This document shows positions 2 through 56,011 of a DNA stretch of 64,000 bases, piece by piece. The position numbers and the translations under genes are program-made. The notes below the pieces were generated by a model. It was given only the letters and a program-made list of their open reading frames with translations, was not told the origin of the DNA and made no database searches. Position 1 is the first letter of the stretch, and the number at the start of each line of letters is the position of its first letter. The stretch lies in assembly GCA_002842035.1 (NCBI GenBank), contig PHBP01000001.1, forward strand, positions 39,674 through 103,673. Reading direction: 5' to 3'. The stretch is from Candidatus Cloacimonetes bacterium HGW-Cloacimonetes-2. GTDB lineage: Bacteria > Cloacimonadota > Cloacimonadia > Cloacimonadales > Cloacimonadaceae.

Positions 2-3000
2 CGCGATAGCATCCTGGATTGCCTCTGGACGATTGGCAAGATCGTTGCAGATTCTGCCGATAAAGCTCTGATGGATGCCTGGTTTCAATCCCTGATCAGT
101 TTTGGTTTCGTCCACCCCTCCCCCATTCGCATCCGAGAAGACTGGCAGCTCGAGATCGACAAAAACCACGTAAAAAACATCCGTATCTGGCTCGACCTGA
201 TCAGCCTCGATCCACGCCATTCGATGCGGCTGATGGCAGCACTGATAGTCAATCTGAGGGTCGGTGGGGTCTTCATCGCTGATACAGACCTCTTTCAGAA
301 GGATGTTTCCGCCTTCTTAAATTCCCGCGCTGTACAACACTGGAAGCAAGTGCAGCAATTGCTACGCCTCTTCCCTGTCTTTTTCAGCGAGATAGGCGCC
401 GAGGGCGAAATCCGCGATGTTACTACAGCTATGGATGAGCTTACTCACCGTCGGGACCGCCTGATCCACTTCCTGCGCAAGCAGGTCCACACCGAGAGTA
501 ACAATACTCACATCACCCTGGTGGAAAAGATCTTGCGCTATTGGAAAGATTCCGATCTTAATTCACTGTTAGCCATCCTGCCTGCGGATGTTTATTCTGA
601 ACTCGCTGATTCTGATCCAGATCAGGAGGGCTCTGCCAAATTCGAATCGATGCGTATGATCAACGCCCTACAGCGCTTTGAAAGAGACAGTGGATATACA
701 ATTGACCAGCTTATTGAAATGTCTTGGGACAAGATCGAGCCGATTTTCCGGGGTATAGATCTATCCGATGATATACCTCTGAAAAAGCTCTCGAGTATAC
801 TGCGCCTGCACGACCTCCTGAGAGAAAAGTACTACTTCCATTCCTCGGATATCTGCCGTCAGCTCGAAAAGTACACTTTCTTTGCACCAAAAGAGGTGCA
901 GCAGTTGCGCCGTTTGCTCAATCACAACGACTTTGAAAATAGCATCCGCTATCTGATGTCGATGATAGAGAAGCTCACGATTCTGGTGCGCAGCCCCAAA
1001 GAAAGCCAGGGCTGGGAAAACATCTATTACAAGCGCCATATCGCAGCCGGAATACCCTCGATGTACGGTCAATACAGGGAAAACAAGTTCGAGGCTTTGG
1101 GTCTGATCTTCCGGCTCGAAGCAGTCGTAAGCAGCCTGATGTCGCGCGATATCGCCAATATCAATCTGGGCTATATCACAGCCCGCAGCCTCAAGAGGAT
1201 CATCCGCACTCTGGAGCTTTTTAATCTGGGTCTCAAGCTGGATGGCATCTCCAATGAAGCCTTTGAGAGCGATCTGCAGATGCTGCGCTATTCAATCAGC
1301 AGCTCCAATTTTTCCATAGATCAGTATATCAACATCTTCAGCTTCCTGGAAGAGAATATCAAGGAGATCATCTCAGAGTATTTCTACCGCAGCTTTGATC
1401 GAGAATTGCACATCATTATCCCCCAGCTCGATCCCAATGCCGGCGAGGGCGCCGCCTACCAAAAGAAAGCCGAGGAATTCTATCGCAATATGCTCTCTTC
1501 CGCTTTCCTGATCCAGGATCTGGACAATTTTATCTCCCGCATCCTGGTCTCGCTGAGAAATATGAAACAGCTTTTCAAGCCGGAACTCTTGATCAAGGTG
1601 ATGAATTACGATCCCGACCAAGTGAGCACCCTTTTACACAAAAAGGACAGCCGTCTGGACAATCAAGTCTTCCTGGGCGCAAAAGCCTATTTCCTGAAGA
1701 AACTCTCCCAGTTACAATTCCCCATTCCCGGAGGATTCGTGCTTACCACAGAGCTTTTCAGGCATAGGACAGCGCTGAATTCGCATCCGGAGATGAGCGA
1801 AGAGATGGATCGGATAATCCGGCAAAGGCTGAGCGCGCTGGAAAATTACACAGGACGCTACTTTGGCGATCCGCGCAAACCGCTCTTGCTCTCTGTTCGA
1901 TCCGGAGGGGCAATATCGATGCCGGGGGCTATGAATACCTTCCTCAATATCGGGCTCAACGACGAGATCACCGAAGCTCTCAGCAGAGAACACAATTTCG
2001 GCTGGACAGCCTGGGATTGTTACCGCAGGCTATTACAGAGCTGGGGTATGAGCCATGGGATCGAGCGTGACGAATTTGACCAGATAATGATCGACTACAA
2101 GGAGCGTCACCGGGTAAACCTCAAAACTTCCTTCTCCGATGAGCAGATGCGCCAAATGACCTTTGACTACAAGGGAGTGCTGGCACGTCACGGGGTAGAG
2201 CTCGTGCAAGATCCTTTCCTCCAGCTCAAAAGCGCAATCGTCTCCGTGCTCGATTCCTGGGATACCCACCGCGCCATCCTTTACCGCAAAACTATGCAGA
2301 TAGCCGATGAATGGGGCACTGCGGTAGTCTGCCAGGAGATGGTCTTTGGCAATATCAGCCTCAGAAGCGGCTCCGGAGTAGTCTTTACCCACGATCCTGC
2401 CACCAAAACTCCCGGGATCAATCTCACCGGCGATTTCACAATTTGCAGCCAGGGAGAGGACGTCGTAGCGGGCTTGGTCTATACTCTCCCGATCTCCGAG
2501 AACCAAAGATTGGCAGCCGCTGAGCCTCTGGATAGCTCACTGGAAAAGGACTTCCCAAACATCTTTGCCCGTTTGCGCCGCTATGCCCGCAGGCTGGTAG
2601 AGGATCTTGGCTATGCACATCAGGAGATCGAATTCACTTTCCAGGGCGATAGCGAGGATGATCTGTATATCCTGCAGATCAGGGATCAGAATATCAATAA
2701 GGAAAGGATGCTCAAGGTCTTCAATTTTGAGCATCAAGCTCCCCGGCAAATCGGGCACGGCATAGGGATCGGCAGCGGCGTCCTAAATGGTAGAATTGTC
2801 TTTGATGAAGAAGATATCAGGGCAATGAAAGCCGATTATCCGGCTCAAAGCCTGATCCTCGTACGCCCCGACACCGTTCCGGACGATATCGATCTGATAG
2901 TCGAATGCTGCGGATTGCTCACTTCCAGGGGCGGAGCTAGCTCACATGCAGCGGTGACAGCCACCCGGCTCAATAAGATCGGGGTGGTCAATTGCCGCAA

Positions 3001-3139
3001 CCTGCTGGTCTTTGATAAGGAAAAGTATTGCCGGATAGGCTCCACCCGGCTAAATCTGGGAGATGAGATTGCCATCGACGGACATAATGGCTCCATCTAC
3101 CTGGGAACTTACGAGATAGAGGAGATATTTGTAAGCTAG
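2..3139 (+). CDS. PPDK-like dikinase-family protein (ATP-grasp nucleotide-binding domain + phosphohistidine swivel domain), 5'-partial, with no PEP/pyruvate TIM-barrel domain
   Basis: The frame stays open from base 2 to the listed ATG at 71, so the true N-terminus is probably upstream of the window. The C-terminal ~480 aa read like pyruvate phosphate dikinase: LGAKAYFLKK...PIPGGFVLTTE, LLLSVRSGGAISMPGAMNTFLNIGLND, QGEDVVAG, EIEFTF..LYILQIRD, and the swivel motif TSRGGASSHAAV (His codon 2945-2947). The ORF stops about 60 aa later. I recognise nothing in the first >560 aa. Confidence 0.8.
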   Translation, partial: RDSILDCLWTIGKIVADSADKALMDAWFQSLISFGFVHPSPIRIREDWQLEIDKNHVKNIRIWLDLISLDPRHSMRLMAALIVNLRVGGVFIADTDLFQKDVSAFLNSRAVQHWKQVQQLLRLFPVFFSEIGAEGEIRDVTTAMDELTHRRDRLIHFLRKQVHTESNNTHITLVEKILRYWKDSDLNSLLAILPADVYSELADSDPDQEGSAKFESMRMINALQRFERDSGYTIDQLIEMSWDKIEPIFRGIDLSDDIPLKKLSSILRLHDLLREKYYFHSSDICRQLEKYTFFAPKEVQQLRRLLNHNDFENSIRYLMSMIEKLTILVRSPKESQGWENIYYKRHIAAGIPSMYGQYRENKFEALGLIFRLEAVVSSLMSRDIANINLGYITARSLKRIIRTLELFNLGLKLDGISNEAFESDLQMLRYSISSSNFSIDQYINIFSFLEENIKEIISEYFYRSFDRELHIIIPQLDPNAGEGAAYQKKAEEFYRNMLSSAFLIQDLDNFISRILVSLRNMKQLFKPELLIKVMNYDPDQVSTLLHKKDSRLDNQVFLGAKAYFLKKLSQLQFPIPGGFVLTTELFRHRTALNSHPEMSEEMDRIIRQRLSALENYTGRYFGDPRKPLLLSVRSGGAISMPGAMNTFLNIGLNDEITEALSREHNFGWTAWDCYRRLLQSWGMSHGIERDEFDQIMIDYKERHRVNLKTSFSDEQMRQMTFDYKGVLARHGVELVQDPFLQLKSAIVSVLDSWDTHRAILYRKTMQIADEWGTAVVCQEMVFGNISLRSGSGVVFTHDPATKTPGINLTGDFTICSQGEDVVAGLVYTLPISENQRLAAAEPLDSSLEKDFPNIFARLRRYARRLVEDLGYAHQEIEFTFQGDSEDDLYILQIRDQNINKERMLKVFNFEHQAPRQIGHGIGIGSGVLNGRIVFDEEDIRAMKADYPAQSLILVRPDTVPDDIDLIVECCGLLTSRGGASSHAAVTATRLNKIGVVNCRNLLVFDKEKYCRIGSTRLNLGDEIAIDGHNGSIYLGTYEIEEIFVS

Positions 3140-3208: not shown

Positions 3209-3370
3209 GCTGCGCAAGGTGCTGAGATCGTTTCTACGCGTCCCCCGCCACCAAGCCCGGAGCGTATGCAAAGGGCGGTATGCGTATGCCATAGCACAGG
3301 GCGTGAGCCATTGATACACCAGCCCTATATCTCCTCCCTCCCAAATCCCCATTCCCAGATTCATCCCGGA

Positions 3371-3458
3371 GATCTACAGCATATCACCAGCAAATCAAGA
3401 GCAATTCACCTCGAACGTGGTTCGACTTGATTTGCTCTTGATCTCCACTTGATATGCT
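3371..3458 (+). repeat. Intergenic repeat family A, copy 1 (structured ~90 bp element)
   Basis: gatctacagcatatcaccagcaaatcaagagcaattcacctcgaac-gtg-gttcgacttgatttgctcttgatc... This is near-identical to the copies at 39038, 48611 and 56963. Hairpin 3390-3435: gcaaatcaag/cttgatttgc plus tcgaac/gttcga. Confidence 0.85.
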
Positions 3459-3646
3459 ATTGTCCAAGGAGCAGGCAGGACAATCACACAAACTGTATAC
3501 AAATAGAGCTCCACCAGCCTTTGGCAAATTTGCTGCTTGACTTTTTTTCTGCTTACTTTTAAGTCGGATTATCCGGCCTTTAGCTCCCAATCTATGATTG
3601 CCGGCTGAACTTGATATTAACAAAAAATAGATACAGGAGACCTGAA

Positions 3647-4900
3647 ATGGACACTGTCATGCTGAACAAAAACCTGCTGGGCATTAACGGCCTGGGCAGG
3701 ATAGGGAAGCTCAATCTGTGGTATCAGTTGATGCTAGGACACTTCGAAGCTTACGTAGTGAATTGCGGTCGTGAAGTCGGAAAGACCCTCGACGACCTGA
3801 TTCAGGTGATCGAAACCGATAGCACCTATGGCTCTCTTCACAAGTTCCTCTACGGAATGACCGGCAGAAAAGCCGAGATCAAGGTGATCGATGCCAATGT
3901 CCCGATCATATCGGTGGATGGCGTACCAATTAAGATATTGCGTAAAGCACGTAATCCCAAGGACATCAACTGGGCATCGGAAGGTGTGCGGATAGTGGTC
4001 GATTGCACCGGGACTTTCCTCGATCCGGGCGCGGAAGTGGACAATCCCAAGGGCAGTGTGCGCGGCCATATCGAAGCTGGTGCGCAAAAGGTGATCGTCT
4101 CAGCACCTTTCAAATTCAAAGATCCTGCTCGCAAGAGTGCGGATGACGCTACAACCTTGATCTACGGGATCAATCATACCAAGTTTGACCCCTTGAAAGA
4201 TCAGATCATCTCCGCCGCATCCTGCACCACAACCGGCTTGGCACATATGATGAAGCCACTCTTTGAACATCATGCCACCAGACAAATCGTTACGGCTTCG
4301 ATGTCCACAATCCACGCCACCACCAATACCCAAAGCATTTTGGATAGTGTTCCATCTGCCGGAGCAAGTGATCTGCGCAAGAACCGCAGCGTCCTGAATA
4401 ATATCATCCTCTCCACGACAGGCGCAGCCAAGACTTTGGAGCAGGTGATGCCACAAATCTCACAGATCGGTTTTATGGCAGATTCGGTGCGAGTGCCCAC
4501 CAGCACAGTTTCGCTGATCATCCTCAATATTACTTTCCACTCCCAACTCGATAAAGCCGGAGAACCCACAGTAAGCCGGGCTTTCCTGAATAGCATCTAC
4601 AAAGAAGCTTCCCTGGGAAGCCAGAAAGACCTGCTGATCTATAGCGAGCGTCAAAATGTGTCTGCAGATCTGATCGGATCCTTGGCGGCTATTACAATGG
4701 AAGCTCACGAGACTCATACCAGAACCGGCTTTCTAAGCCTGCCAAAAGAGATATTGCAGAGCTCCGGACTCAATCCCTTGGAAGATATCAGCCTGCCTGT
4801 GACGCATGCGAAGATCTTTGGCTGGTATGATAATGAACTGGGGTCTTATGTGAATTGTCTGGGCAAGCTGACCCAGTATGTGGATCAAAATCTAAGATAA
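3647..4900 (+). CDS. Glyceraldehyde-3-phosphate dehydrogenase family protein (long ~417 aa form)
   Basis: INGLGRIGK Rossmann motif, catalytic-Cys block SAASCTTTGLAH, and STIHATTNTQ. I chose the ATG at 3647 because it follows acaggaga. The listed ORF begins at an upstream TTG (3611). Confidence 0.8.
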   Translation: MDTVMLNKNLLGINGLGRIGKLNLWYQLMLGHFEAYVVNCGREVGKTLDDLIQVIETDSTYGSLHKFLYGMTGRKAEIKVIDANVPIISVDGVPIKILRKARNPKDINWASEGVRIVVDCTGTFLDPGAEVDNPKGSVRGHIEAGAQKVIVSAPFKFKDPARKSADDATTLIYGINHTKFDPLKDQIISAASCTTTGLAHMMKPLFEHHATRQIVTASMSTIHATTNTQSILDSVPSAGASDLRKNRSVLNNIILSTTGAAKTLEQVMPQISQIGFMADSVRVPTSTVSLIILNITFHSQLDKAGEPTVSRAFLNSIYKEASLGSQKDLLIYSERQNVSADLIGSLAAITMEAHETHTRTGFLSLPKEILQSSGLNPLEDISLPVTHAKIFGWYDNELGSYVNCLGKLTQYVDQNLR

Positions 4901-9909: not shown

Positions 9910-10008
9910 TGTTTATTCTCCTTTTTGTTCTTTGACATTCATATACAAATAGTGTAAAGCAAAACTGAGATAATGCAAATAGCACTAATTCCTGTATCTT
10001 TACCCTAT

Positions 10009-10228
10009 CTCTTAGCTAACACCTGTACAGCCCCTGTGACTCCGCTGTGGGACAGGGGATTCTCAGCTCTAAGCTGGCGCTGGACAGGAGCTTGCATTGA
10101 GTAAGGCTAGTCTCTTCCCCTTGATACGATGCTTGATTCCTGCTTGTATCCTGCTTGTATCCTGTATGAAGAGGCAGCATCCATCTGATTAACAATGTAT
10201 TAGCAGGTTTTCATTCAAAAGGGAGCAA
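10009..10228 (+). repeat. Intergenic repeat family B, copy 1 (long form)
   Basis: ctcttagc..cagcccctgtgactccgctgtggg..gagtaaggct..cttgatacgatgc, then phased cttgattcctg cttgtatcctg cttgtatcctg tatgaa, then a tail ending at 10228. It aligns over ~220 bp with 25949-26185, and its core aligns with four further copies. Confidence 0.8.
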
Positions 10229-10292: not shown

Positions 10293-13200
10293 TTACTTCA
10301 TAAGTAGCATCTTGTTTGTGCGGCTGTAACCCTTGGTATCGAGTCTGTAGAAATAGACACCTGAGGAAACGCTGCGGTTGGCTTCGTCCCTTCCATCCCA
10401 ATTAAGATGATGTCTGCCAGCAGCTTTGTCACCGCTAAACAGGTTTCTCACCAATTGTCCTCTGATATTATAAATCTTCAAGCTGGTAAAACCGGCTGAA
10501 GCCAGATCAAAGGAGATGGTTGTAGTGGGGTTGAAGGGATTGGGGTAGTTGCCGCGCAGGGCGGTTACCAGCCCGGGAATCTGCTCTTCACCATCCGAAG
10601 GATCATAGGGGAAACGGAAGGAGACTAGATCGCTGGGGCTGCCTTCAATATTGATATATTTGGCTTTGATGTAGTACTGGTAGAGACCGTCGAGGGTGAT
10701 AGTCTCGGTATAGGTCGTGCCTGTAGTCTCAAAGACTTTGGCAAAGATACCATTATCAAAGCGTTTGTACACGTTGTAACCCATCACGGGCAGAACTGGA
10801 TCGTAAGGCTCTGTCCAATTGATCACCAGCTCACCGGTCTCATTGCTGATCGTGAAAGTAGGTGTCATTGGCTTGGGCAGATAGATCAGGGTGAATTCTG
10901 TGTAACGGGCAAGACTTGCAGCATCCAGAGTGAAGGGACCAAAGGTGGAGGATTGATGATTGAACATCGAAGCCTCGGAGAAATAAGTGCCTCTCTTCAG
11001 ATATACCGCAAAGCTGCCATCGGCTGAAGGATGGGCTGCATACTTGTTGCTGCAAACCACAGTTGCCAAAGCAGGGTTGTATTCGGAAGTCGGAATGACT
11101 GTTCCATAAAGCTTTCCGGTCTTTTTGTCCAGGCCACTGAGCTGGAAGTCATCGATAAACCAGCCAAGATTGCTGGTGGCGCCATCAGCACCAAAACGGA
11201 ATCTAAACATCACGTTTTGGCCGTTGTAAGCACCCAGATCAAAGGATGCAGTCTGCCAACCGCTGCTATTTCCGGAGAAACCGGCCTGTCCCTGGAGACC
11301 TGCGATGTTGTTGTGAGGATATCCGCTTTGAGGAGTAAGGATATTCCAGGTATCGCCGCCATTGGTGGAGATGCTAAGGTTTCCGCCGTCAAAGCCTGCC
11401 TCTGTAGCATAGTAATGCTTGAAGGTAAGCTGGCTCTGAGTGGTAAGCAGATAGGCAGGTGTATAGAGCTTGTAATCCACATAATCCGGATAGCTGCCAC
11501 TAAGGTTTGTTGCCCAGACTTTCTCGCCGGAGAAGGCGTTGACCTGGGCAGGATCACCCCAAGTCCAGCCGATTTCGCTTTCGAAATCCGCATTATTGTG
11601 TTCGAAGTCGCTGAATTCATTGGGTATATTGTAGGGAATGTAGAATTCAGTTTCGTATGGTAGAGCGTTGCTGGAAGCAAGGCTGAGGCTCATCGGGATA
11701 TATGTACCACTGCCGGTCTCGCCTGTGAACTGGAGGTTGTAAACATATTGCATCACCCAGCTACCTTTGATGGAGCCGACTGTGATGGTAGGATTGGTAA
11801 TACTAACTCCAGGGAAGGTGCTGGAGAGTGTTCCAGCTACATCCATAGCTTCGACAGCGGTGGGATTCTTTACATTGAGCACGAGCTTTACGGTCTCGCC
11901 TATATCGATCACGCCGTTGTAGCCGGTGCCTTCATCATTGATCAGATAAGATTGGAGGCTAAGCTGGGATGCGTCGATACGGATGCTGAAGGGACGTACC
12001 CATTGGTTTTCACCGGAGACCACAGTCAGGACGAATTCGGCTACGTGTCCATCCGGGCAATCCTCTGCAACTTCAAAGACGAAAGCATCGCGGTTTACGC
12101 CAAGACCTTCGGCTTGAAGCGGATAGTATTCCGAATCACCCTGGGTGATGTTGATGAATTCATCAGTAGTGGTCAGGACAGAACTGATGCCATTTGCGGG
12201 AGCGTTGCCGATATTGCTAAGCTGAATACCGAGCTGGACGGTCTCACCTGGTTCGGCAATATTATTGCCATTGCCATCGGTTATGAAGGTCTGAGCCAGA
12301 ATGAGCTGGGCTTCCACGTGATAGACAGGGACGTTTGTGATGTAGATGGCTCTCTGATTACCCAGGGGTGAGGCTGCAACGGGATAAACGTTGTTGAAGC
12401 TGTACTCCAGACCGCGTGTGCCTGTATGGTCTTCGATACCAATGGAAGCAAAGTTACCATGGTTGGCACCGCTCTGGGAATCGACGTTGTTGAAGGTCTG
12501 ATATTGGATCTTGATAGGTCCATCACCAAGTGAGGTTGAATAAACGGCTTGGTCGTAAAGGATCACTTGGAAGGTCTCCAGCGAAGTGCCGTTCTTACCA
12601 TTCTTCATATTGTACCATTCAACTATGAAAGCATTGTTATTGCGATCGTACCAGGTATAGACTCCGCCACCGGTATGAGTGGCAAGATCATCCCAGAAGG
12701 GAGCGATCATAGGGCTGGGGCCCATTGGACCAGGCAGGCGGTAATTACGAAATTCACCATTTGCGCTGTTGCCCAAGGCTATGAATCCGTTTGAAGAAAC
12801 GGAGATTTGATTGTAAACAATACCATAGAACTGGAAGGGGAAAGGCAGTGTAACAGGAACGATCGAGGTGCAACCAACCTGGTCGCCTTCGTCACCGGAG
12901 GTATAGGCATCAGCGAGAGGAAGCAGAGTTCCCAATCCGCCTTCAGCCGGAGCAATTCCGACCCACTCGAATGTGGGATGGTGTTCGTAGCTCCAGTCTC
13001 CATCGTCATAGATTACATATCCATAGGCATCAGGACCCAGGGGATCTTGCACACCTACGACACCGATTGTAATCGAGAAATCTATGAACTGCTCATAACC
13101 GGCATCAGTGTAGAGCTTGACCCGCATAGGAATAACCATCCCTGGAAGGATTTGCTCGCGGGCAAAGACTGTGAAGTTATCAGTACCAGTCGTAGCAGTG

Positions 13201-15740
13201 GCACCGGAAGCGATATCACCAAAGAAGCCGATGTTATCACTGATGGTTACCAGATCATTCAGGGTATAGAGACGGCCGTATAGACCTGTGATTCCCATCG
13301 GACCAATATTTTGGATACCGACGGTAAGAGGAGCTGTCTCGTTTGGATCGAGAGAGTTGTTTCCACCATCCAGGATAGCAACCGTGCTGAAATTGAACTT
13401 TGCAGATTCAACCGGGATGAATTCGGATACATCATAAGTACCGCCAAGATTATCCGTCAGGATCAGATGCAAACGCAGCATAGTTCCATGAGGAGCAGAA
13501 TTGGAGATATTCATCACGACAGGATTGGTGGATGTGCCCAGGCTACCGCCGGCGATATTGCCATAAACTACAGTAGAATCAGCGATAGTAACATAGGGGC
13601 TGGTGGTGGTAATGTAACCACTGATACCATTGATCGCTGTTGTGCCGGTGTTTTGGAGACCAAAAGAAACTTCGATGGTCTCGCCTGCATTGGCTATAGA
13701 GTTGTTGTTACCCTGAGAAGCACCAAAGTTGTCATCATCCAAGAGGACAGCACCGGGCACGAGGGTAGTCTCTTCTACTACGGTAATGGTAGTCTGATTG
13801 GGCAGATAGTTGTGCTTGCTCACCGTGATCACTGCGTTTCCGGCAGTCATACCGGCTGGAAGCACCAAGATTACATTGCCTTCCTCATCAGTAAAGCCTC
13901 GGGAAATCACTTGCATCCCCTGTGAGAGGGTTACGCTGGCTCCGACTACTACACCGGCAGTATCAGCTACAGAGACATCAAGCAGGCTCAGTCCCAAAGG
14001 AATGGAAGTGTCAACAGTCACTGTGAACTGGCTGGGTATCCCGGTGAAGATTTCCATCGTAGGATCACCCATAAGGTTTGCCCAGTGGTTAAACTTTACA
14101 ACGTTTGAAGGAGATGAAACACCAAAGATTTGGTGCATATTAAATTTACCTGCCAGCAGTGCTTCACCCATTGTGCGCATACCAGCCTGGTAGATACCGT
14201 GAATGATACCGCCATTGATGGCGTTGTTGAAAGTGGTATGAGTACTGGAGGTGGACATACCGATCGATGTAACAGCACCCTTGGGCGCTGCTACCGTACC
14301 CACACGAATGAAGGTCTCGGTCTTTGCCAAACCGCCGTTGTAATTACCTGTTCCGCAGGTGATGATCGAGGTATGGGGAAGCTTGAATCCATTGATCAGG
14401 GATTCAGAAGGGCTCCAGCCTGCCAGATCGATATAGCCACGGAAATTGAAGAATCCCACGCCTTGGTTCAAACCGGAATTGATTCCTGAACTGAGGCCAT
14501 CCGCTCCATAGACCTCAATGTAGGTCATATCAGGATTGATCTGCTGGGAAGCTTCCATAAGGTATTTTGCCATATAGACAGTCGAGATACCCGAAGGAGT
14601 CCAGTCTGCTGCCAGGAGCATCTTGTTGAGCCATGATGCAGTGGCAATGTTCAGGTTCTTCTCAACCAGATAGATCTTGTTTAGCACAACCTGAAGCTGG
14701 GAGATGTTTTCGACCGAGATACGTCCGATAAAGACATCACCAACCCCATCGGCACCGGCCAGATGAGTGTAAGGATAATCTCCGCCGCCGCTGCTTTCTG
14801 TAAAAGCAGGTATGGCATAAGAGCCGGCAGTATCACCCAGTAGGATGATAAAATCAGGCCTGGTGGTGGGATCGTTGTACAAATTCTGCAAGTAAGTCTT
14901 GATGGCTGTGGTAGAAGTACCTGCTGTTGAAGTACTGACAACCCGGACATCTGCACCCTTTTGTCTCTTCCAAAGCACGTAATCATCGAGAGCTTGGACA
15001 AAGGCAGGTTCGGTGTTGTTACCATAGAGCAAAAGATATCTTACAGGGCTGTTCACCGGAATCAGATTTCTGTAATCATTGTAGTTTAGGAGTGCCATAC
15101 TGTACATCTTGTCAAATGCTGCAGAGATTTCAGTAGGCTCACTGATTAGTTCGTTTACACCTTGTTCGGCAGTGAAGTCCACGCGAAAGTCTATGCTTTC
15201 CCTCAGGTTCAATTCACCGGTTACAGAATTGTAAAAGAAAGGACTGATCTGGATATTAACTATACGAAAGTCCCTCATGACTACGGGCTGGCCATACTCG
15301 ATGGTATTAGCCGGGAAGACTCCGCCGCCATTGAAGTAATCTTCATTGACAACAAAGGACTTGGGGCTTTCCAGATCCACTGATTCCTGGACAGGATAGG
15401 GTGTGAATGCTCCAAGGCTTACCGAGCGAACAGACTGCGGTGTTACACTAACCGATCCTCTTGCAGGGACGATGATTGAGGTGCCAATGATCGGCAACTC
15501 AGGCATTCCCTGCTCGATGGTGTAGGCAGCACCGGGCAGCACGATATGCTGGTAGGTCTTGTTGCCAATCGTCTCCTCAGAGAGACTATACTGGGGCATC
15601 TCAAATCTGATATCCATACCGGAGGCAGATTTGGAGCTGATCTGAAACGCTTGGTTAAGCGATTGCGCTGTCTCTGATCCGGCTACTCCATAGAGCAGAC
15701 CGAAGCAAATAACAAGTAGCAATAGGGCATACTTCTTCAT
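10293..15740 (-). CDS. Very large secreted gingipain-like (peptidase C25 family) multidomain protein with T9SS C-terminal sorting domain (C25-1)
   Basis: Signal peptide MKKYALLLLVICFG (ATG 15740 after gaggaa; the listed ORF starts at an upstream TTG). C25-like blocks YLLLYGNN, FIILLGD, GGGDYPYTHL and IITCGTGNY. Repeated Ig/CARDB-like modules, a lectin/MAM-like module ending GWFIDDFQL, and an FN3-like module. C-terminal domain (CTD) NYPNPFNPTTTISF..GVYFYRL..MLLMK. Confidence 0.85.
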   Translation of the reverse strand: MKKYALLLLVICFGLLYGVAGSETAQSLNQAFQISSKSASGMDIRFEMPQYSLSEETIGNKTYQHIVLPGAAYTIEQGMPELPIIGTSIIVPARGSVSVTPQSVRSVSLGAFTPYPVQESVDLESPKSFVVNEDYFNGGGVFPANTIEYGQPVVMRDFRIVNIQISPFFYNSVTGELNLRESIDFRVDFTAEQGVNELISEPTEISAAFDKMYSMALLNYNDYRNLIPVNSPVRYLLLYGNNTEPAFVQALDDYVLWKRQKGADVRVVSTSTAGTSTTAIKTYLQNLYNDPTTRPDFIILLGDTAGSYAIPAFTESSGGGDYPYTHLAGADGVGDVFIGRISVENISQLQVVLNKIYLVEKNLNIATASWLNKMLLAADWTPSGISTVYMAKYLMEASQQINPDMTYIEVYGADGLSSGINSGLNQGVGFFNFRGYIDLAGWSPSESLINGFKLPHTSIITCGTGNYNGGLAKTETFIRVGTVAAPKGAVTSIGMSTSSTHTTFNNAINGGIIHGIYQAGMRTMGEALLAGKFNMHQIFGVSSPSNVVKFNHWANLMGDPTMEIFTGIPSQFTVTVDTSIPLGLSLLDVSVADTAGVVVGASVTLSQGMQVISRGFTDEEGNVILVLPAGMTAGNAVITVSKHNYLPNQTTITVVEETTLVPGAVLLDDDNFGASQGNNNSIANAGETIEVSFGLQNTGTTAINGISGYITTTSPYVTIADSTVVYGNIAGGSLGTSTNPVVMNISNSAPHGTMLRLHLILTDNLGGTYDVSEFIPVESAKFNFSTVAILDGGNNSLDPNETAPLTVGIQNIGPMGITGLYGRLYTLNDLVTISDNIGFFGDIASGATATTGTDNFTVFAREQILPGMVIPMRVKLYTDAGYEQFIDFSITIGVVGVQDPLGPDAYGYVIYDDGDWSYEHHPTFEWVGIAPAEGGLGTLLPLADAYTSGDEGDQVGCTSIVPVTLPFPFQFYGIVYNQISVSSNGFIALGNSANGEFRNYRLPGPMGPSPMIAPFWDDLATHTGGGVYTWYDRNNNAFIVEWYNMKNGKNGTSLETFQVILYDQAVYSTSLGDGPIKIQYQTFNNVDSQSGANHGNFASIGIEDHTGTRGLEYSFNNVYPVAASPLGNQRAIYITNVPVYHVEAQLILAQTFITDGNGNNIAEPGETVQLGIQLSNIGNAPANGISSVLTTTDEFINITQGDSEYYPLQAEGLGVNRDAFVFEVAEDCPDGHVAEFVLTVVSGENQWVRPFSIRIDASQLSLQSYLINDEGTGYNGVIDIGETVKLVLNVKNPTAVEAMDVAGTLSSTFPGVSITNPTITVGSIKGSWVMQYVYNLQFTGETGSGTYIPMSLSLASSNALPYETEFYIPYNIPNEFSDFEHNNADFESEIGWTWGDPAQVNAFSGEKVWATNLSGSYPDYVDYKLYTPAYLLTTQSQLTFKHYYATEAGFDGGNLSISTNGGDTWNILTPQSGYPHNNIAGLQGQAGFSGNSSGWQTASFDLGAYNGQNVMFRFRFGADGATSNLGWFIDDFQLSGLDKKTGKLYGTVIPTSEYNPALATVVCSNKYAAHPSADGSFAVYLKRGTYFSEASMFNHQSSTFGPFTLDAASLARYTEFTLIYLPKPMTPTFTISNETGELVINWTEPYDPVLPVMGYNVYKRFDNGIFAKVFETTGTTYTETITLDGLYQYYIKAKYINIEGSPSDLVSFRFPYDPSDGEEQIPGLVTALRGNYPNPFNPTTTISFDLASAGFTSLKIYNIRGQLVRNLFSGDKAAGRHHLNWDGRDEANRSVSSGVYFYRLDTKGYSRTNKMLLMK

Positions 15741-15859
15741 AAGATTTTCCTCAACCTTTATCAAGACTTAATGTTAGACACTTATGCAAGGATTGTTCCC
15801 AAACAATACCATATCTTTGCAAGCTTTTAGCCCACATAGCGGTGAGTGGCTTCAATCCA

Positions 15860-19321: not shown

Positions 19322-19440
19322 CCTTATCCGCCCTCTTTCGTTGAAACAATGCTAACACATTGCAGGTCAATTGATTCATCCTTGTTCATACAGGATACAA
19401 GCAGGATTGATGCAGGGTACAAGCATCCATCCAAAAGGGA
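19322..19440 (-). repeat. Intergenic repeat family B, copy 2 (reverse orientation)
   Basis: The reverse complement reads ggatgcttgtaccctgcatcaatcctgcttgtatcctgtatgaacaaggatga..gttagcattgtttcaacgaaagaggg. This aligns with copy 4 (32905-33020). Confidence 0.8.
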
Positions 19441-25733: not shown

Positions 25734-25948
25734 AGCTGTTCCTTGTGCGCTATACAAAGGTTTTGCACCTTCTTTCGCTATTTTCACAAACTAATTCGAA
25801 TTGCTAATTCTGTAAAGTCTTTTTTTGGGAAGCCTGCTCAGATTGTCCCCAGCCGCAAAATGCACTGCAAAATCTGTTGTTTTCGAGCCTGACTAGTCTG
25901 CACGGCTTTGGCTCTTTCGACTGTGAAAGACCTATTTCTTTAAGCTCA

Positions 25949-26185
25949 CTCTTAGCAAGGTGGTGTGCAGCCCCTGTGATTCTGCTGTGAATCCCCTGTG
26001 GGACAGCAGATAGACAGCTTCCGCGCAGGCGCTTTACAGGTGAGTGCTTAGAGTAAGGCTTTGCATTGCTTGCTGCTTGATAGGATGCATCTACCCTGCT
26101 TGTATCCTGCTTGAATCCTGCTTGAACATCCAATATAGAGCTATCCTGCAATGCTTTAGGAATGTTCAATTGAATAGGAAGTATA
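25949..26185 (+). repeat. Intergenic repeat family B, copy 3 (long form)
   Basis: ctcttagc..cagcccctgtgattctgctgtg..gagtaaggct..cttgataggatgc, then ctaccctg cttgtatcctg cttgaatcctg cttgaac, then cctgcaatgctttaggaatgttcaattgaatagga. Confidence 0.8.
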
Positions 26186-32904: not shown

Positions 32905-33020
32905 GCTCTGCTTGATATCCTGCATCTATCCTGCTTGTATCCTGCTTGAATCCTGTATGAACAAGTATGATCTATCTGTCATATAAGCGGTTAGCATTGT
33001 TTCACTGAATAGGAGCGCAG
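32905..33020 (+). repeat. Intergenic repeat family B, copy 4
   Basis: cttgatatcctg catctatcctg cttgtatcctg cttgaatcctg tatgaacaagtatgatc..gttagcattgtttcactgaataggagcg. Confidence 0.8.
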
Positions 33021-37763: not shown

Positions 37764-38981
37764 ATGAATATATTCGGAATTCTCAGAATAGCCATCAAGT
37801 CCCTGGGACGCAACAAGACCCGCACCTTCCTCACTATGCTTGGAATAATGATCGGCGTGGCAGCCGTGATCGCTATGCTCGCCATTGGTCAGGGTGCAAA
37901 GAAGATTGTGGACGACCAGATCAACAGTATGGGCACAAACGTCATCATAATCAGTTCAAACTTCTCTTCCCAGCGCTCCACTGTGCAATCCGCAGCCGGC
38001 AGCGGTAACCTCCTGGAGGTGGAAGACACCGAAGCTATCCGTGACAGAATCGATGGCGTTCTCTATGCCTCAACCGTCTTCACCACCTTTGGACAGCTCA
38101 AGTTTGAAGGCAACAACTGGCGTACCGGCGTGATGGGAGTCGATGCTGATTATTTTAACATCCGCGATATGCAGGCAGAGCAGGGGCATCTTTTCTACCC
38201 CTCAGATGTAGAAAACAGCACCAAAGTCTGCGTAATCGGCAAGACTGTAGCGGACAATCTCTTTGGCGAAGCTGACCCTCTGGAAAAGATCATCCGTATT
38301 CGGAATGTGCCTTTCAAGGTGGTCGGAGTCCTCAAGGCCAAGGGACAAAACTCTATGGGCCAGGATCAGGATGATACTGTGATTGCGCCCTATTCTACAG
38401 TTTACGCAAGGCTCTTAGGCCAGCGCTGGCGCAATATGATGATTATGGTCTCAGCAGAATCCAAAGAGCGCATTCATATAGTTCAGCAAGACATCCTCGA
38501 TCTCTTACAAAGCCGTCATCGCGGCACCACAAGCGAGGAATTCTACGTGCGGACACAGACTGATCTCGCAGAAGCAGCCAGTTCTGTCTCGGACACGATG
38601 ACCATCCTGCTCGCCAGCATTGCAGGGATATCCCTCTTGGTAGGCGGTATCGGTATTATGAACATAATGCTGGTCTCCGTGACCGAACGCATCAAAGAAA
38701 TCGGCATCAGAATGGCTGTGGGAGCAAACAAGAAAGACGTCCTGCTGCAATTCATCATCGAAGCCGTCACCATCAGCATCTTTGGTGGATTGATTGGCAT
38801 TGGCCTGGGCTTTCTTGCCTCAGGCATAGTCGGCAAGTATATGAATTGGGCAGTAGAGGTTACCCCTTGGTCAGTGATGCTTTCCGTAGGTTTTTCCTGC
38901 GCAATAGGCATCTTCTTTGGCTGGTATCCCGCCAGTAAAGCTGCCAATCTCAACCTGATCGACGCCCTGCGTTACGAATAA
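37764..38981 (+). CDS. ABC transporter permease (MacB periplasmic domain + FtsX-like)
   Basis: N-terminal TM helix, ~250 aa periplasmic domain, and three C-terminal TM helices with ERIKEIGIRMAVGA. Confidence 0.9.
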   Translation: MNIFGILRIAIKSLGRNKTRTFLTMLGIMIGVAAVIAMLAIGQGAKKIVDDQINSMGTNVIIISSNFSSQRSTVQSAAGSGNLLEVEDTEAIRDRIDGVLYASTVFTTFGQLKFEGNNWRTGVMGVDADYFNIRDMQAEQGHLFYPSDVENSTKVCVIGKTVADNLFGEADPLEKIIRIRNVPFKVVGVLKAKGQNSMGQDQDDTVIAPYSTVYARLLGQRWRNMMIMVSAESKERIHIVQQDILDLLQSRHRGTTSEEFYVRTQTDLAEAASSVSDTMTILLASIAGISLLVGGIGIMNIMLVSVTERIKEIGIRMAVGANKKDVLLQFIIEAVTISIFGGLIGIGLGFLASGIVGKYMNWAVEVTPWSVMLSVGFSCAIGIFFGWYPASKAANLNLIDALRYE

Positions 38982-39000
38982 ACCACTATCTGATTCTTGG

Positions 39001-39030
39001 GCAAGAACATCGGTTGTTCTTGCCTTTTTC
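39001..39030 (+). terminator. Rho-independent terminator of the efflux operon
   Basis: gcaagaaca-tcggt-tgttcttgc followed by ctttttctttg. Confidence 0.8.
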
Positions 39031-39037
39031 TTTGCCT

Positions 39038-39134
39038 TGATCTACAGCAGATCACCAGCAATTCAAGAGCAATTCACCTCGAACCGCGTTCGACTTGATT
39101 TGCTCTTGATCTGCTCTTGATATCGGCTTGATTA
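39038..39134 (+). repeat. Intergenic repeat family A, copy 2
   Basis: tgatctacagcagatcaccagcaattcaagagcaattcacctcgaac-cgc-gttcgacttgatttgctcttgatctgctcttgat... Confidence 0.85.
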
Positions 39135-39155
39135 TTGGACAGCAATCAGCGGGCA

Positions 39156-39183
39156 ATAAAAAAAGGGGATACCACGATCCCCT
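39156..39183 (-). terminator. Rho-independent terminator of the PDZ-OMP gene
   Basis: Minus strand: aggggat-cgtggt-atcccct followed by ttttttt. Confidence 0.8.
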
Positions 39184-39204
39184 TTATCAAGACAATTTGT
39201 TCTA

Positions 39205-40311
39205 TTAGAAACCGAACCAGGGTCCGATCGAGAAGTGCAATCCCTGCAGGGGAGTATTGGGCGAAGCAGCGATATCAAAGTCATTTCCGCTACCATCGAT
39301 CAATTTCCATCCATCTTCCGGAGCATAACCATAGCTGTAGCCAACCTCGGCTCTTACTGCGAGCCAGGGCAGGACACGATAAAGCAGTTCAGCTTTGGGC
39401 TGCACAGCCAGAAATGAACGGCTCAATCTAACGCTGGAATTGGCTGTCTGTACGACTGTGCCATTGATATCACCCCAGTTATAGTTTCCATTGGAGTGTG
39501 TAATGCTGATGGAGTGGTCTGCCGCACCCAGCATCAAGCCAAGTGAACCGACGAAATTCTTGGCAAGCGGAATTCTCTTGTCTATAGTAACTCCACCAAA
39601 GCTGAGGGAATACCTCATCGTGGTGTTGTAGCCTGCAAAAGCAGGATCAGGATCGGCTTTGGTGCGCTTGTAATTATATCCCATCCCGATTCCACCGATG
39701 AAGATGCCTTTGCCGACATTACCTTTACCGGCTCCGCCTTGCAGGAGGATACCGTTCTCGGGAAGAGGATCAAAACCCATCTGGCCGATCAGAGCGTTGA
39801 TGTCATCAAAATCCTGCATATAATAAGCCGGAATCCAGCCACCGCCGCCAAAGCCTACGTAGGCTCTTTTGGGAGCTTGATTCTCTGCGTCATCCATATC
39901 AGAAGAGATCTGCATCGGAGCACCAAGCATCATCGAAATAGTCTGAATCCCGCCATCTCTGAAGACCTCGATATCCACTTCATCACCGGCAAGGTAGTTC
40001 GTCGTCATTTGCATAAAAGCAGCTTTGTCGGCTATTCTCTGACCCTCCAGGCTCATCATTATGTCTTCTGCTTCGAGACCATATACTTCAGCAGGAGAAT
40101 CTGCGACAACTCCTCGGATCACAATACCATAATTATTGGGATATTCCAGTTCGTCTATGTCATCCTCTGTGATATCATCGAGATAAATACCGAAATATCC
40201 GGGTTGACTTTGGGTTGTGCTGACCAGCATCGGGTTTTCCCCCCGGGCAAAAGCGGGAGTCACCAATCCCAAAACTAAGAGAGTAATAATCATAATAAAT
40301 ACGTTCTTCAT
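39205..40311 (-). CDS. Secreted PDZ-domain protein with C-terminal beta-barrel-like region
   Basis: Signal peptide MKNVFIMIITLLVLGLV (ATG 40311 after ggagg). PDZ-like GIVIRGVVADSPAEVYGLEAEDIMMSLEGQRI. Gly/Tyr-rich strands ending GPWFGF. Confidence 0.6.
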   Translation of the reverse strand: MKNVFIMIITLLVLGLVTPAFARGENPMLVSTTQSQPGYFGIYLDDITEDDIDELEYPNNYGIVIRGVVADSPAEVYGLEAEDIMMSLEGQRIADKAAFMQMTTNYLAGDEVDIEVFRDGGIQTISMMLGAPMQISSDMDDAENQAPKRAYVGFGGGGWIPAYYMQDFDDINALIGQMGFDPLPENGILLQGGAGKGNVGKGIFIGGIGMGYNYKRTKADPDPAFAGYNTTMRYSLSFGGVTIDKRIPLAKNFVGSLGLMLGAADHSISITHSNGNYNWGDINGTVVQTANSSVRLSRSFLAVQPKAELLYRVLPWLAVRAEVGYSYGYAPEDGWKLIDGSGNDFDIAASPNTPLQGLHFSIGPWFGF

Positions 40312-40343
40312 TCTAACCTCCATGGTTCTTGTCATTTATAGTC

Positions 40344-43516: not shown

Positions 43517-43630
43517 TCAATGGATGCTCCTATCCTGCTTCTACCCTGCTTCTATCCTGCTTGAATCCTGCATGAACAAGAATGATACGACTGTCCTACA
43601 ATGCTTTATGATATTTCCATCGATAAGGGG
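43517..43630 (+). repeat. Intergenic repeat family B, copy 5
   Basis: ggatgctcctatcctg cttctaccctg cttctatcctg cttgaatcctg catgaacaagaatgata..cctacaatgctttatga. Confidence 0.8.
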
Positions 43631-43644
43631 CTGTATAGCAAAGA

Positions 43645-44415
43645 CTAAACGTTGACTTCCACAAAGACCGGGCAATGGTCGCTGCCCATAATGTCCTGAC
43701 GGATTCCTGCAGTTATCACCCGGGGCAGATCTTCTTGATTAACAAAGAAATAGTCTATTCTCCAGCCAACGTTTCTGGAGCGCGCTGCTGTACGGTAGCT
43801 CCACCACGAATACTCCTCGGGATTTTGGTTGAAGTGCCTGAAAGTATCGACCCATCCGAGCGCTACCAGCTTATCAATCCAGGCTCTTTCGATGGGCAGG
43901 AATCCTGAGATCTTCTCATTTTCCTTGGGATTTGAGAGATCAATCTCCTTGTGTGCGGTGTTGACGTCACCGCTGATCAAGACCATCTTGCCGGTCTTGC
44001 GCTTTTCCTCCATCACCTCCAGGAAGCGATCGTAAAAGCGTAGTTTATAGTCTAAGCGTTCATCGCTCTGCGCTCCATTTGGGAAATAGATTGAGAAGAG
44101 GATAAACTTGTCGTACTCAGTGATAATGATGCGGCCTTCATTGTCAAATTCAGCGATCCCGATGCCGTATTCCACCTTGATCGGAGCAATCCTGGTGAGT
44201 AGAGCTGTGCCGGAATAGCCTTTGCGCTCTGCGTGGCTGTAATACTGCTGATACTTATCCAACTCTGCCATCTGGGGTGGAATCTGGTGTTCCTGCAGCT
44301 TGGTCTCCTGCAATCCAATGATATCAGGGCTTTCCTTTTGGATGGTGTCGATGAAGTCTTTATTCATCACAGCCCTCAGTCCGTTTACGTTCCAAGACCA
44401 TATTTTGAGTCGCAT
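43645..44415 (-). CDS. xth: Exodeoxyribonuclease III
   Basis: MRLKIWSWNVNGLRA, QETK, and C-terminal SDHCPV; 256 aa. Confidence 0.92.
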   Translation of the reverse strand: MRLKIWSWNVNGLRAVMNKDFIDTIQKESPDIIGLQETKLQEHQIPPQMAELDKYQQYYSHAERKGYSGTALLTRIAPIKVEYGIGIAEFDNEGRIIITEYDKFILFSIYFPNGAQSDERLDYKLRFYDRFLEVMEEKRKTGKMVLISGDVNTAHKEIDLSNPKENEKISGFLPIERAWIDKLVALGWVDTFRHFNQNPEEYSWWSYRTAARSRNVGWRIDYFFVNQEDLPRVITAGIRQDIMGSDHCPVFVEVNV

Positions 44416-44613
44416 CTATACCTCTTGTCAGTTTTCTATCTTGAGTGAGTATTACTGCTACAGCGTGATAAACTGATCTGTCAAGCTTCTTTTTGGGGAT
44501 GGAGCTTTGCTCGTCTTAGGATGTTCATCCCGAACGAGCCGGGTCCTGCAGTTTGCTTCGGCAGCATCTTTGATTATCATTATAGGAAATAGTTAAAAAC
44601 AGAGGAGACGTTT

Positions 44614-45507
44614 ATGAAGACTAAAATCACTGTATTGGCAGCGCTTATCATCCTGTCAGTTAGTATCCTTGGTGCTCAGAATTGGACACTGAAAGGTGAT
44701 GTGAATTTCACAGCGACACAGAATGCCTACAGCAACAACTGGGCAGGCACGGAGAATGGATCGATCACTTGGGTTGCCGGCTCAAATATGAGTGCTGAAA
44801 AGCAGCTATCTCCACTCTTTTTCAATATCAATACTCTGAAGCTTGCTTTTGGGCAGACACATCAGCAAAAAGAACGTACTGATATCCTCGGCAATACCGA
44901 GAGCTATTGGGCTCATCCGGAGAAATCTACAGATAAGATCGATGCCGAAGCCTTGATGAAGATGACTATGCAGACCTTTGTGAATCCTTTTATGGGGCTG
45001 AGGGCAGAGAGTCAGTTTCTGGATATGTCTGATCCCTCCCTTACCAGGATCATCAATCCGATCAAGTTTACCGAATCTGCCGGTATCACACGTAACTTCA
45101 TCCAAAGAGGTAACGAGCTCTGGACTGCCAGGTTTGGCGCAGCTTTCAGGCAAAACCTCAATCGTGATGTATTGGTGAGCGTTCTCCCGGAAGAACGCGA
45201 ACTGCAAACCACTGTGGATGGAGGTCTGGAATTCGTCTCTGAATACAAGAACGTCTTTGCTCCCTCAAATGTAAGCTATAGCAACAAGCTACAGATTTAT
45301 CAAGCTCTATTCAACAGCCGCAGTGACGAGTATCAGCACGAGGAATGGAAATCTCCCGATCTGAATTGGGAACACACCCTTGGACTCAAGCTGATCGGCG
45401 CTTTATCACTCAATCTCTACCTGCAATTGCTCTACGAAAAGGAACAAGTAGCAGAGCTGCAGTTCAAAGAGACAATGGGCTTGGGATTCTCCTATAACCT
45501 GTTCTAA
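44614..45507 (+). CDS. Secreted/outer-membrane protein of unknown function (DUF3078-like)
   Basis: Signal peptide, an N-terminal block ..NFTATQNAYSNNWAGTENGSI.. that I remember as typical of DUF3078, a beta-strand pattern, and an aromatic C-terminus YNLF. Confidence 0.5.
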   Translation: MKTKITVLAALIILSVSILGAQNWTLKGDVNFTATQNAYSNNWAGTENGSITWVAGSNMSAEKQLSPLFFNINTLKLAFGQTHQQKERTDILGNTESYWAHPEKSTDKIDAEALMKMTMQTFVNPFMGLRAESQFLDMSDPSLTRIINPIKFTESAGITRNFIQRGNELWTARFGAAFRQNLNRDVLVSVLPEERELQTTVDGGLEFVSEYKNVFAPSNVSYSNKLQIYQALFNSRSDEYQHEEWKSPDLNWEHTLGLKLIGALSLNLYLQLLYEKEQVAELQFKETMGLGFSYNLF

Positions 45508-45525
45508 AATACTCTTAACAAAGCA

Positions 45526-45560
45526 AAAGCCGGAACTATATGCTCCGGCTTTCGTTTTAT
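45526..45560. terminator. Hairpin terminator between convergent genes
   Basis: aaagccgga-actatatgc-tccggcttt followed by cgtttt; A-rich on the other flank. Confidence 0.7.
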
Positions 45561-45571
45561 CTATAACTGCT

Positions 45572-46501
45572 CTAGCTGGTAAGAGACTTGATCCAGAGTG
45601 GGATCATAATCTCGTGATGCCCGATGAAGTAGTAACCCTTGCCGCCTGTTTCTACGGGACGCCGTGTCACATTCTCCAAGGCACGGTACTGCATATTCAT
45701 ATCAAAGACTGCAGTAGTGAAGTTCTTTAGTTTACCGCTAATGTTACGAGCCACAGTGAGTGCTTTGAGAAAGACTTCCGGGATGATCACTGCGCTACCA
45801 AGATCGACAAAGACACCGCCTTCGTCCAGCTCCAATAGCTGATTGCAGAGGATACGAAAGTCCCGGTGCGAGCAATCACCTATCGCCTTACCATCCGCAC
45901 AGGGTGTCTGATGCACGATATCTGTCCCCATCCCGACGTGCACAGTAACCGGAATCTCGTGCTTATATGCCTGTGCCAGCAGGGAGTTCTCCGGATTTGG
46001 TGCCTTCTCAAGCAATTCCTTGCCCAAGACTTCACCAAAGCCAAGCTCATCCTTACTGCCTTGAGTAATCACTGAATTGATACCGTAGGTTGTCTCAAAA
46101 ACCATCCCGAAACTACCATCAGCGAGAGCTTTGGAGACATCCTCCGAAGTCTTGCCAAACATAGCAAGCTCATAATCGTGGATTGCGACCGAACCATTGA
46201 TCACAAAGCAAGATACCAGCTTCTGCTCCATCATCTCGATCAACAAAGGTGCCAAGCCACACTTGATAACGTGACCCCCCATCCCGATGATAATTGGCTT
46301 CTTCATCTCGATAGCTTGTTTGCAGCGAGCGATGAACTCCTTGAAATCAGATGCTTTCAGGATGTCCGGAAGACAGTCCAGAAAAGCTCCTGTCTCCACC
46401 TTGCCTTTCCTGGCATAGGCAGAGGGCTCGACCTTGCTGGGGCGGTCTTTTACCGAGTAAACGTTTATATCAAAAAGATTTATCTCTTTGTAACGGCTCA
46501 T
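45572..46501 (-). CDS. Deoxyhypusine synthase-like (DHS-fold) protein
   Basis: Blocks IIIGMGGHVIKCGLAPLLIEMMEQKLVSCFVINGSVAIHD and AYKHEIPVTVHVGMGTDIVH resemble DHS-family NAD-binding segments. The assignment is from memory only. Confidence 0.4.
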   Translation of the reverse strand: MSRYKEINLFDINVYSVKDRPSKVEPSAYARKGKVETGAFLDCLPDILKASDFKEFIARCKQAIEMKKPIIIGMGGHVIKCGLAPLLIEMMEQKLVSCFVINGSVAIHDYELAMFGKTSEDVSKALADGSFGMVFETTYGINSVITQGSKDELGFGEVLGKELLEKAPNPENSLLAQAYKHEIPVTVHVGMGTDIVHQTPCADGKAIGDCSHRDFRILCNQLLELDEGGVFVDLGSAVIIPEVFLKALTVARNISGKLKNFTTAVFDMNMQYRALENVTRRPVETGGKGYYFIGHHEIMIPLWIKSLTS

Positions 46502-48522: not shown

Positions 48523-48610
48523 TATAATCTCCTGATAATATTAGTATTTAGAGCATTGGTAAATTCCAGCACAATGCCTTATCGTGTCAAGTCATCTTTT
48601 AGCTGTCCTT

Positions 48611-48700
48611 TGATCATCAGCATATCACCAGCAAATCAAGCCGAAATCACCTCGAACCACGTTCGACTTGATTTGCTCTTGATATGCTCTTGATCTGCTT
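48611..48700 (+). repeat. Intergenic repeat family A, copy 3
   Basis: tgatcatcagcatatcaccagcaaatcaagccgaaatcacctcgaac-cac-gttcgacttgatttgctcttgatatgctcttgatctgct. Confidence 0.85.
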
Positions 48701-55550: not shown

Positions 55551-55553
55551 GCA

Positions 55554-56003: not shown

Positions 56004-56011
56004 GGTATCCG

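Follow-up and report, generated by a model that had tools for sequence, protein, structure and literature searches.

Family A, a lineage-restricted family of intergenic palindromes built of mirrored 11-bp units in Cloacimonadota

The 64-kb stretch of the Candidatus Cloacimonetes bacterium HGW-Cloacimonetes-2 genome analyzed here (the window) contains four copies of an intergenic repeat, family A, named c1 to c4 in order of position. The first copy, c1 (3370-3466, +; loop GTG), lies between the tandem genes for a PPDK-like protein (71-3139, +) and a GAPDH-like protein (~3647-4900, +), and consists of a left arm (~3372-3410), the centre TCGAAC-GTG-GTTCGA (3411-3425) and a right arm (3426-3466). 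Copy c2 (39038-39134, +; loop CGC) is located between a convergent MacB/FtsX gene (37764-38981, +) and a PDZ gene (39205-40335, -), and c3 (48611-48707, +; loop CAC), which carries the variant unit CCGAAATCACC, separates the divergent genes for an acyl-CoA dehydrogenase (47377-48522, -) and gcvP (~48848-50194, +). The last copy, c4 (56963-57059, +; loop CGG), carries the variant unit TCGAAATCAAG and lies between a convergent CAP-domain gene (56012-56788, +) and a C25 peptidase gene (57141-60845, -), and adjoins, to its left (56906-56950), an array of a second repeat family, family B. The original prediction was borne out in the positions of all four copies, their loop triplets and their gene arrangements (tandem, convergent, divergent and convergent), although conservation at the 3' end reaches slightly further than had been claimed, for a true length of about 97 nt.

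Family A was the top (largest) direct-repeat family of the window in the repeat search. Its 29-base core, TCGAACNNNGTTCGACTTGATTTGCTCTTGAT, had four exact + strand matches in the window and none in 100 dinucleotide-preserving shuffles, and the four copies align without gaps across ~97 nt. With an nhmmer profile of 19 copies from the window and a related genome, the four window copies scored 102-105 bits on the + strand and 76-84 bits on the - strand, and because of this difference an orientation can be assigned to the element. The same profile detected no further degenerate copies in the window, in the 6.8 kb past its right edge or in distant relatives. In 70.8 kb of the window genome there are four copies.

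The element is one long imperfect palindrome of ~95-97 bp. The 11-bp tandem claimed for its 3' end was confirmed by TRF, and because the 5' arm, as had been overlooked, is the mirror image of this array, the palindrome takes in the whole element. Each arm contains ~4 units of 11 bp, with the form ATC-nnn-(AGC/CCG/TCG)A-n on the left and its mirror image on the right, and the arms join at TCGAAC-N3-GTTCGA. The outermost units are inverted, (G/A)(A/G)TC...GA(C/T)(C/T), and pairing out to ~45 nt from the centre makes them terminal inverted repeats. Three end types were found, one with GTAG/CTAC (GATCTACAGCA / TGCTGTAGATC) and two without it (AGTCTAAAGCA and AGTCATCCCGA). The tetranucleotide GATC is present in many units and is not conserved, the variable position being A, T or G, and the idea of a Dam/SeqA GATC cluster was dropped for this reason. 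Also dropped were a CsrA sponge, as family A has no GGA motifs, and a parS-like site.

The predicted folding energy of the copies is -37 to -46 kcal/mol (z-score -5 to -8), and the two strands fold equally well. Minimum-energy folding gives one in-register hairpin for c1, c2 and c4 and, for c3, a shifted register with an 11-nt bulge. The original prediction had interpreted the alternative pairings of the 5' arm as two mutually exclusive helices, resembling a switch. These proved to be two registers of repeat-on-repeat pairing, one 11-bp unit apart, and because a tandem repeat that pairs with a tandem repeat automatically provides an alternative register, they are no evidence of a switch.

The distribution of the exact core was determined in one genome per species, for 185,579 species, and separately in a metagenome collection. 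The species scan returned 15 matches at 14 sites, all in a single MAG, Cloacimonadota CAYSSP01, the 15th match being the opposite strand of a symmetric copy at MAG locus L005. The metagenome scan returned nothing but two unrelated AT-rich chance matches. By exact-core scans, family A thus totals 19 (four in the window and 15 matches in the MAG) in two related Cloacimonadota genomes only, and since the core was found in the window genome and one related MAG, the family is restricted to a narrow lineage. Across syntenic stretches the window and the MAG share 87-91% identity (87% to 99% by region), and the window itself is 100% identical to metagenome contigs of 624 and 674 kb. In L005, a 2.5-kb indel (L005 1447-3921 versus L039 6721-6778) starts ~300 nt away from the symmetric copy; this segment, which the otherwise 98-99% identical contig L039 lacks, contains two - strand ORFs of 243 and 534 aa, the former without a Pfam match.

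All four window copies are on the + strand, as had been claimed, but such an agreement has a chance probability of 0.125, and one MAG contig (contig 6) has family A in both orientations. When window and MAG contigs were taken together, five of the six pairs of neighbouring copies shared their orientation (P = 0.11), so that the same-strand trend is not significant. Transposition of single-stranded DNA would predict an orientation bias linked to the replichore.

These data bear on the possibility that family A is an independent + strand small RNA gene, or a riboswitch-like element with two alternative helices. The common strand of the window copies and the existence of alternative pairing registers would agree with it; the equal folding of both strands, the MAG contig with both orientations and the triviality of a helix shifted by one unit would not. 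Searched against Rfam at gathering thresholds, the whole window gave one tRNA only, and at relaxed thresholds the c4 region gave only generic miRNA-hairpin matches of 13-19 bits, against cut-offs of 64-100 bits. The element thus matches no Rfam family, in line with the original prediction, in which no known RNA family had been recognized, and an Rfam search empty at any threshold is a further point against a small RNA. So is the lack of a promoter-like site adjoining c1, c2 or c4. Together with a covariation below the shuffled expectation and the replacement of the sequence by other families in close relatives (both below), these observations make a small RNA or switch very improbable.

Selection on structure had been proposed because the stems are kept while the loop varies. 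Covariation was evaluated in 17 non-redundant copies, with 45 mirrored pairs (765 pair cells) and 500 shuffles. Twenty of the 45 pairs never vary, and since invariant stem pairs give no covariation signal, they are uninformative either way. Paired cells amounted to 77.0%, compared with 79.3 ± 0.7% in the shuffles, and to 26-41% when the partners were slid by 1-3 columns out of register. Double-sided changes were observed in 11 cells versus 22 ± 3 in the shuffles, and the covariation score was 0.031 versus 0.055 ± 0.008, the observed value being reached by at least 499 of the 500 shuffles. The search for compensatory changes in these 17 copies therefore went against the proposal, as such changes are fewer than expected from shuffling. 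Pairing is also interrupted at fixed places: a mismatch of CC opposite TT beside the core (columns 40-41/57-58) is kept in 16 of the 17 copies, and 12-13 of the 17 have a mismatch at the equivalent position of the outer unit.

The variation that does exist has the form of a mosaic. Among 75 core columns, 47 are invariant, 17 have variants shared between copies and 11 have singletons only. The invariant positions are the ATCA/TGAT cores, and the positions between them vary. For 25 of the 36 pairs of variable modules, all four combinations of the two commonest states were found, and these states include multi-nucleotide alternatives (CC/AG, AGC/CCG and TCT/TGG) for which recurrent point mutation is an unlikely source. 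The end types GATCTACAGCA, AGTCTAAAGCA and AGTCATCCCGA mix freely with either core orientation. This reshuffling of multi-nucleotide variants, together with the freely combining ends, indicates that the copies exchange unit variants, as in a variant-repeat minisatellite, and 'palindromic minisatellite' is the description that suits family A best. Among the loop triplets (CAC/GTG, CCG/CGG and CGC) there are two reverse-complement pairs, which suggests that the loop may have flipped between the stems, an event that would explain reverse-complement loops in fewer steps than three substitutions.

Family A is intergenic in 19 of 19 copies, with ~6 in divergent, ~6 in tandem and ~4 in convergent contexts; in the tandem contexts its orientation is that of the genes in four cases and the opposite in two. 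By Pfam, the 34 genes that flank the copies are housekeeping genes of unrelated kinds, for example those for LysRS, TIM, an ABC transporter, OAD-beta, a histidine kinase and peptidases. One of the MAG copies has a gene for an N6/N4 DNA methyltransferase (L001 218-1120, -) beside it.

Several canonical intrinsic terminators were predicted near the window copies, all of them outside the element. Just 5' of c2 is that of the upstream + strand gene (38999-39033, +), and just 3' of it is that of the PDZ gene (39154-39185, -), which is conserved in two assemblies of the MAG lineage (L022 and L038), unlike the block that holds the element. Copy c2 is therefore enclosed by two canonical terminators, one for each of the convergent genes, and neither of the flanking transcription units includes it. 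On the 3' side of c4 the C25 peptidase gene has its terminator (57085-57123, -), and c3 exactly occupies the sole non-conserved block (48602-48710) amid two promoter-proximal blocks that are near-identical in the MAG. This placement of c2, c3 and c4, beside or between terminators or promoter blocks, suggests that the elements sit where insertion is harmless.

The same contexts are relevant to a role in RNA, in which the hairpin would act in cis in an untranslated region, as a terminator, as an mRNA-stabilizing barrier to RNases or as an RNase III site, like some REP/BIME elements. The predicted hairpin is very stable, the central stem followed by the T-rich CTTGATTT is terminator-like on the + strand in all four window copies, and c1 and c4 immediately follow + strand genes for which no other terminator was predicted. 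Against this, the central stem has 6 bp with three G-C pairs and would be a weak terminator, c2 and c4 adjoin separate canonical terminators, and c3 and ~5 other copies are in divergent promoter regions. With orientation relative to the upstream gene being mixed as well, and no covariation in the stems, we consider a cis-acting RNA element quite unlikely.

Family B, the repeat next to c4, is also intergenic and is found at 10117-10223, 26073-26179, 32908-33014 and 43523-43629 on the + strand and at 19382-19425 and 56906-56950 on the - strand. Its direct, non-palindromic arrays contain 3-5 copies of an 11-bp unit (CCTGCTTGnAT), with the reverse complement AGCAGGAT every 11 nt, and its position abutting family A at c4 has a mirror arrangement at the MAG copy of L004. 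Two family B copies have ~130 nt more in common upstream (9991-10116 and 25931-26072), including CAGCCCCTGTGA...CTGTGGGACAG and GAGTAAGGCT, which could belong to a composite element of greater length or form a conserved leader. Short-read contigs from Logan (L019-L021, equivalent to window 43551-48647) begin within a family B copy and break off within c3, a behaviour expected of multi-copy repeats in assembly. Short DNA repeats are also shared by three large paralogous C25-peptidase / T9SS-tail proteins (10293-15764, 57141-60845 and 60981-63980, all -); these are a gene family and not a non-coding repeat.

The sites occupied by family A in the window were compared with those of relatives. In L022 and L038, at ~87% identity, the c2 and c3 sites hold a different GC-rich palindrome, family G, made of 11-bp GCGGCATGATC units. 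It is located at 4460-4530 and 14080-14125 in L038 and at 14653-14711 and 5088-5133 in L022. At both sites the entire spacer block is replaced and the adjacent terminator and promoter blocks are conserved; at the c3 site, family G is inside a replacement block of 309 nt. Neither the window nor the remaining MAG loci contained family G, and the MAG itself also has the 14 family A sites. The two comparable sites, c2 and c3, are therefore both occupied in both lineages by different families. By a rough estimate, the choice of the same two of ~5 sizeable spacers has p ~0.1, and the shared occupancy could reflect a function tied to these sites, as opposed to chance or a hot spot.

At the c1 site, the PPDK-GAPDH spacer of a species at 75-78% identity (L034 4308-4770) contains unrelated 8-mer tandem repeats (AAAACGAT five times, CTCTGTGT four times and TTTAAGAT-like copies) and small hairpins, and in a species at 70-75% identity (L036) the spacer is just 32 nt long. 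Copy c4 is 99% identical to its MAG ortholog (L009). Selection on the element was rejected as the cause of this conservation because the entire ~2.2-kb tract that includes c4 and the CAP-domain gene (55432-57632) is ~99% identical to L009, compared with 85-90% in the flanks, so that the identity reveals no constraint specific to the element; the tract is one of recent homologous recombination between the two lineages. An argument for long-term site stability, from a 748-kb JGI contig that keeps two of the MAG copies, was likewise dropped, since that region is 98-99% identical to the MAG.

More distant Cloacimonadota have intergenic palindromes of 11-bp units of their own, at L025 1616-1697 and 7050-7117 (ATCATGTCCTG) and at L027 7803-7861 and 14412-14457 (ACCGTACACTG); in the 15-17 kb of two other Cloacimonadota species, no such palindromes were found. 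The terminus AGTCATCCCG is common to the palindromes of L025 and to one family A end type. One L025 copy is just downstream of a CAP-domain gene, like c4.

This recurrence is one argument for a phased protein-binding array, among the three options originally offered, in which a lineage-specific protein (nucleoid-associated, a regulator or a domesticated transposase) would bind the ATC-N8 units along the same helical face, and element families would co-evolve with the protein, leaving different families at the same sites. A strict 11-bp period, near one helical turn and usable by a cooperative DNA-binding protein, is present in both arms of family A, in family B and in the families of unrelated sequence in other species. 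The invariance of the ATCA/TGAT cores between variable positions, the fact that both lineages have a repeat at c2 and c3, though from different families, and the ~6 of 17 contexts that are divergent promoter regions also point in this direction. The neighbouring genes, however, have no functional theme, the c1 spacer is empty or contains unrelated repeats in other species, regulation is unlikely for c2 between its terminators and no candidate protein emerged. A build of tandem units is in addition known from plain MITEs such as BrickBuilt (PMC4596501), and we regard a binding array as possible but unlikely.

The other two options of the original prediction were a small RNA, the arguments for which do not stand up, and a REP/MITE-like element. 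The latter fits, because family A is multi-copy, strictly intergenic, lineage-restricted and palindromic, with no tie to neighbouring genes. Family A therefore probably represents lineage-specific, non-coding and non-autonomous DNA repeats of the REP/REPIN/MITE kind, selfish or neutral. Some observations are at odds with this interpretation. The suggested search for a RAYT/IS200-like transposase was negative: with phmmer, the E. coli RayT and an approximate IS608 TnpA sequence had no match better than E = 0.38 among the six-frame ORFs of 345 kb, and no transposase, RAYT or integrase was present among the window genes, the 34 flanking genes (Pfam) or the 345 kb of sequence searched. Nor did the 345 kb contain a parent IS with family A ends and a transposase. 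No direct repeat of at least 3 bp was consistent outside the element in the 17 copies, with all boundary offsets tried, as would be needed for a target-site duplication. There was no clean pair of filled and empty sites at high identity either, what was observed being block replacement and not simple insertion. The modest copy number, the occupation of the c2 and c3 sites in both lineages and the phasing of 11 bp, about one helical turn, also count against a REP/REPIN/MITE element.

Among known repeats, the REPINs and REP/BIME elements of Pseudomonas and E. coli are mobilized by RAYTs (PMC3116915, PMC3337134). Like REPINs, family A is extragenic and symmetrical, could form a long hairpin in single-stranded DNA or RNA, falls within the size range of ~70-110 nt and belongs to the multi-copy, lineage-specific families without target-site duplication. 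It also has conserved mismatches that could confer strand specificity, and one end type with CTAC/GTAG. REPs have a conserved GTAG/CTAC tetranucleotide at their 5' end, which in family A is on only some of the ends, and the arms are arrays of variant 11-bp units instead of one REP of 20-40 bp per side. Compensatory changes, described as common in Pseudomonas REPINs (PMC3116915), are under-represented in family A. No RAYT, the single-copy Y1 HUH transposase that such repeats flank, was found in the 345 kb, and the known copies so far are in the tens, with 14 MAG sites, and not in the hundreds.

Besides the REPINs, the closest analogue is the BrickBuilt MITE of Porphyromonas gingivalis, which has direct 23-nt units in variable number and leader and tail subunits (PMC4596501). 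Both are from the wider FCB group, species-restricted and always intergenic, with ~19 copies per genome for BrickBuilt, and both are made of spacer-free tandem short units with small inverted ends and no transposase inside the element (PMC4596501). In family A, by contrast, the 11-bp units are fixed in number and mirrored as a palindrome; the direct 11-bp arrays of family B are closer in form to BrickBuilt than family A is.

The pneumococcal BOX, the Correia elements of Neisseria and the enterobacterial ERIC are intergenic elements of ~100-150 bp with terminal inverted repeats, stable hairpins and a mosaic or modular build, and occasionally affect transcription or mRNA stability. Correia elements have TA duplications and an IHF site, and the modules of BOX are 45-59 nt long. 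To our knowledge, none of the three is built of mirrored 11-bp units, and we know of no sequence similarity between them and family A. Integron attC sites are imperfect palindromes of ~60-140 bp that are recognized as a folded single strand; they contain unpaired bases that are conserved, and their central loop varies. They are on one strand within a cassette array, with intI nearby, and have R''(RYYYAAC) and R'(GTTRRRY) at their outer ends. Family A resembles them in its imperfect palindrome, conserved unpaired bases, variable central loop and AAC...GTT motifs, and differs in that its copies are 8-35 kb apart among housekeeping genes and in both orientations on one contig. An attC identity was rejected, as the AAC/GTT motifs are central and not terminal, and the window has neither a cassette array nor an integrase.

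If family A is a REP/MITE-like repeat, as we favour, its elements would enter spacers and be exchanged or replaced there by a process at the DNA level, the likeliest route being a single-stranded hairpin intermediate and a trans-acting enzyme encoded elsewhere in the genome. Gene conversion, slippage of units and hairpin-templated strand switching would then reshuffle the copies, which would account for the flipped loops and for the mosaic pattern of the units. Mirrored unit arrays, and not selection for an RNA fold, would have given rise to the hairpin as a by-product, and the conserved pyrimidine-pyrimidine mismatches may make the palindrome tolerable by keeping it from being perfect, or may distinguish one strand so that it can be recognized. 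Effects on neighbouring genes, if any, would be secondary.

A broader proposal is that the Cloacimonadaceae harbour a superfamily of 'unit-coded' palindromes, mirrored 11-bp ATC-N8 arrays with lineage-specific units, which would be long-term residents of spacers co-evolving with a putative lineage-specific protein. We put this forward as speculative and rather doubtful. If true, it would explain the two families in the same two spacers at ~87% identity, the invariant ATCA cores and the avoidance of perfect pairing, and the putative protein could be the partner in a new REPIN-RAYT-like association or in a phased nucleoid or regulatory binding system.

Cloacimonadota are uncultured, abundant syntrophs of anaerobic digesters, and no paper on the repeat content of Cloacimonas or Cloacimonadota was found in the literature. 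With no Rfam family either, family A is previously undescribed, and the kind of feature is already known; its unusual details are the mirrored architecture of 11-bp units, their fixed number, the conserved mismatches and the deficit of compensatory pairs. At present, it amounts to a common type of genomic feature from a lineage that has received little study. A catalogue of these repeats explains contig breaks in Cloacimonadota assemblies, offers markers for strain typing and flags spacers of fast turnover. If a cognate protein exists, family A would be a tractable case of short palindromic repeats persisting and diversifying outside the Proteobacteria.
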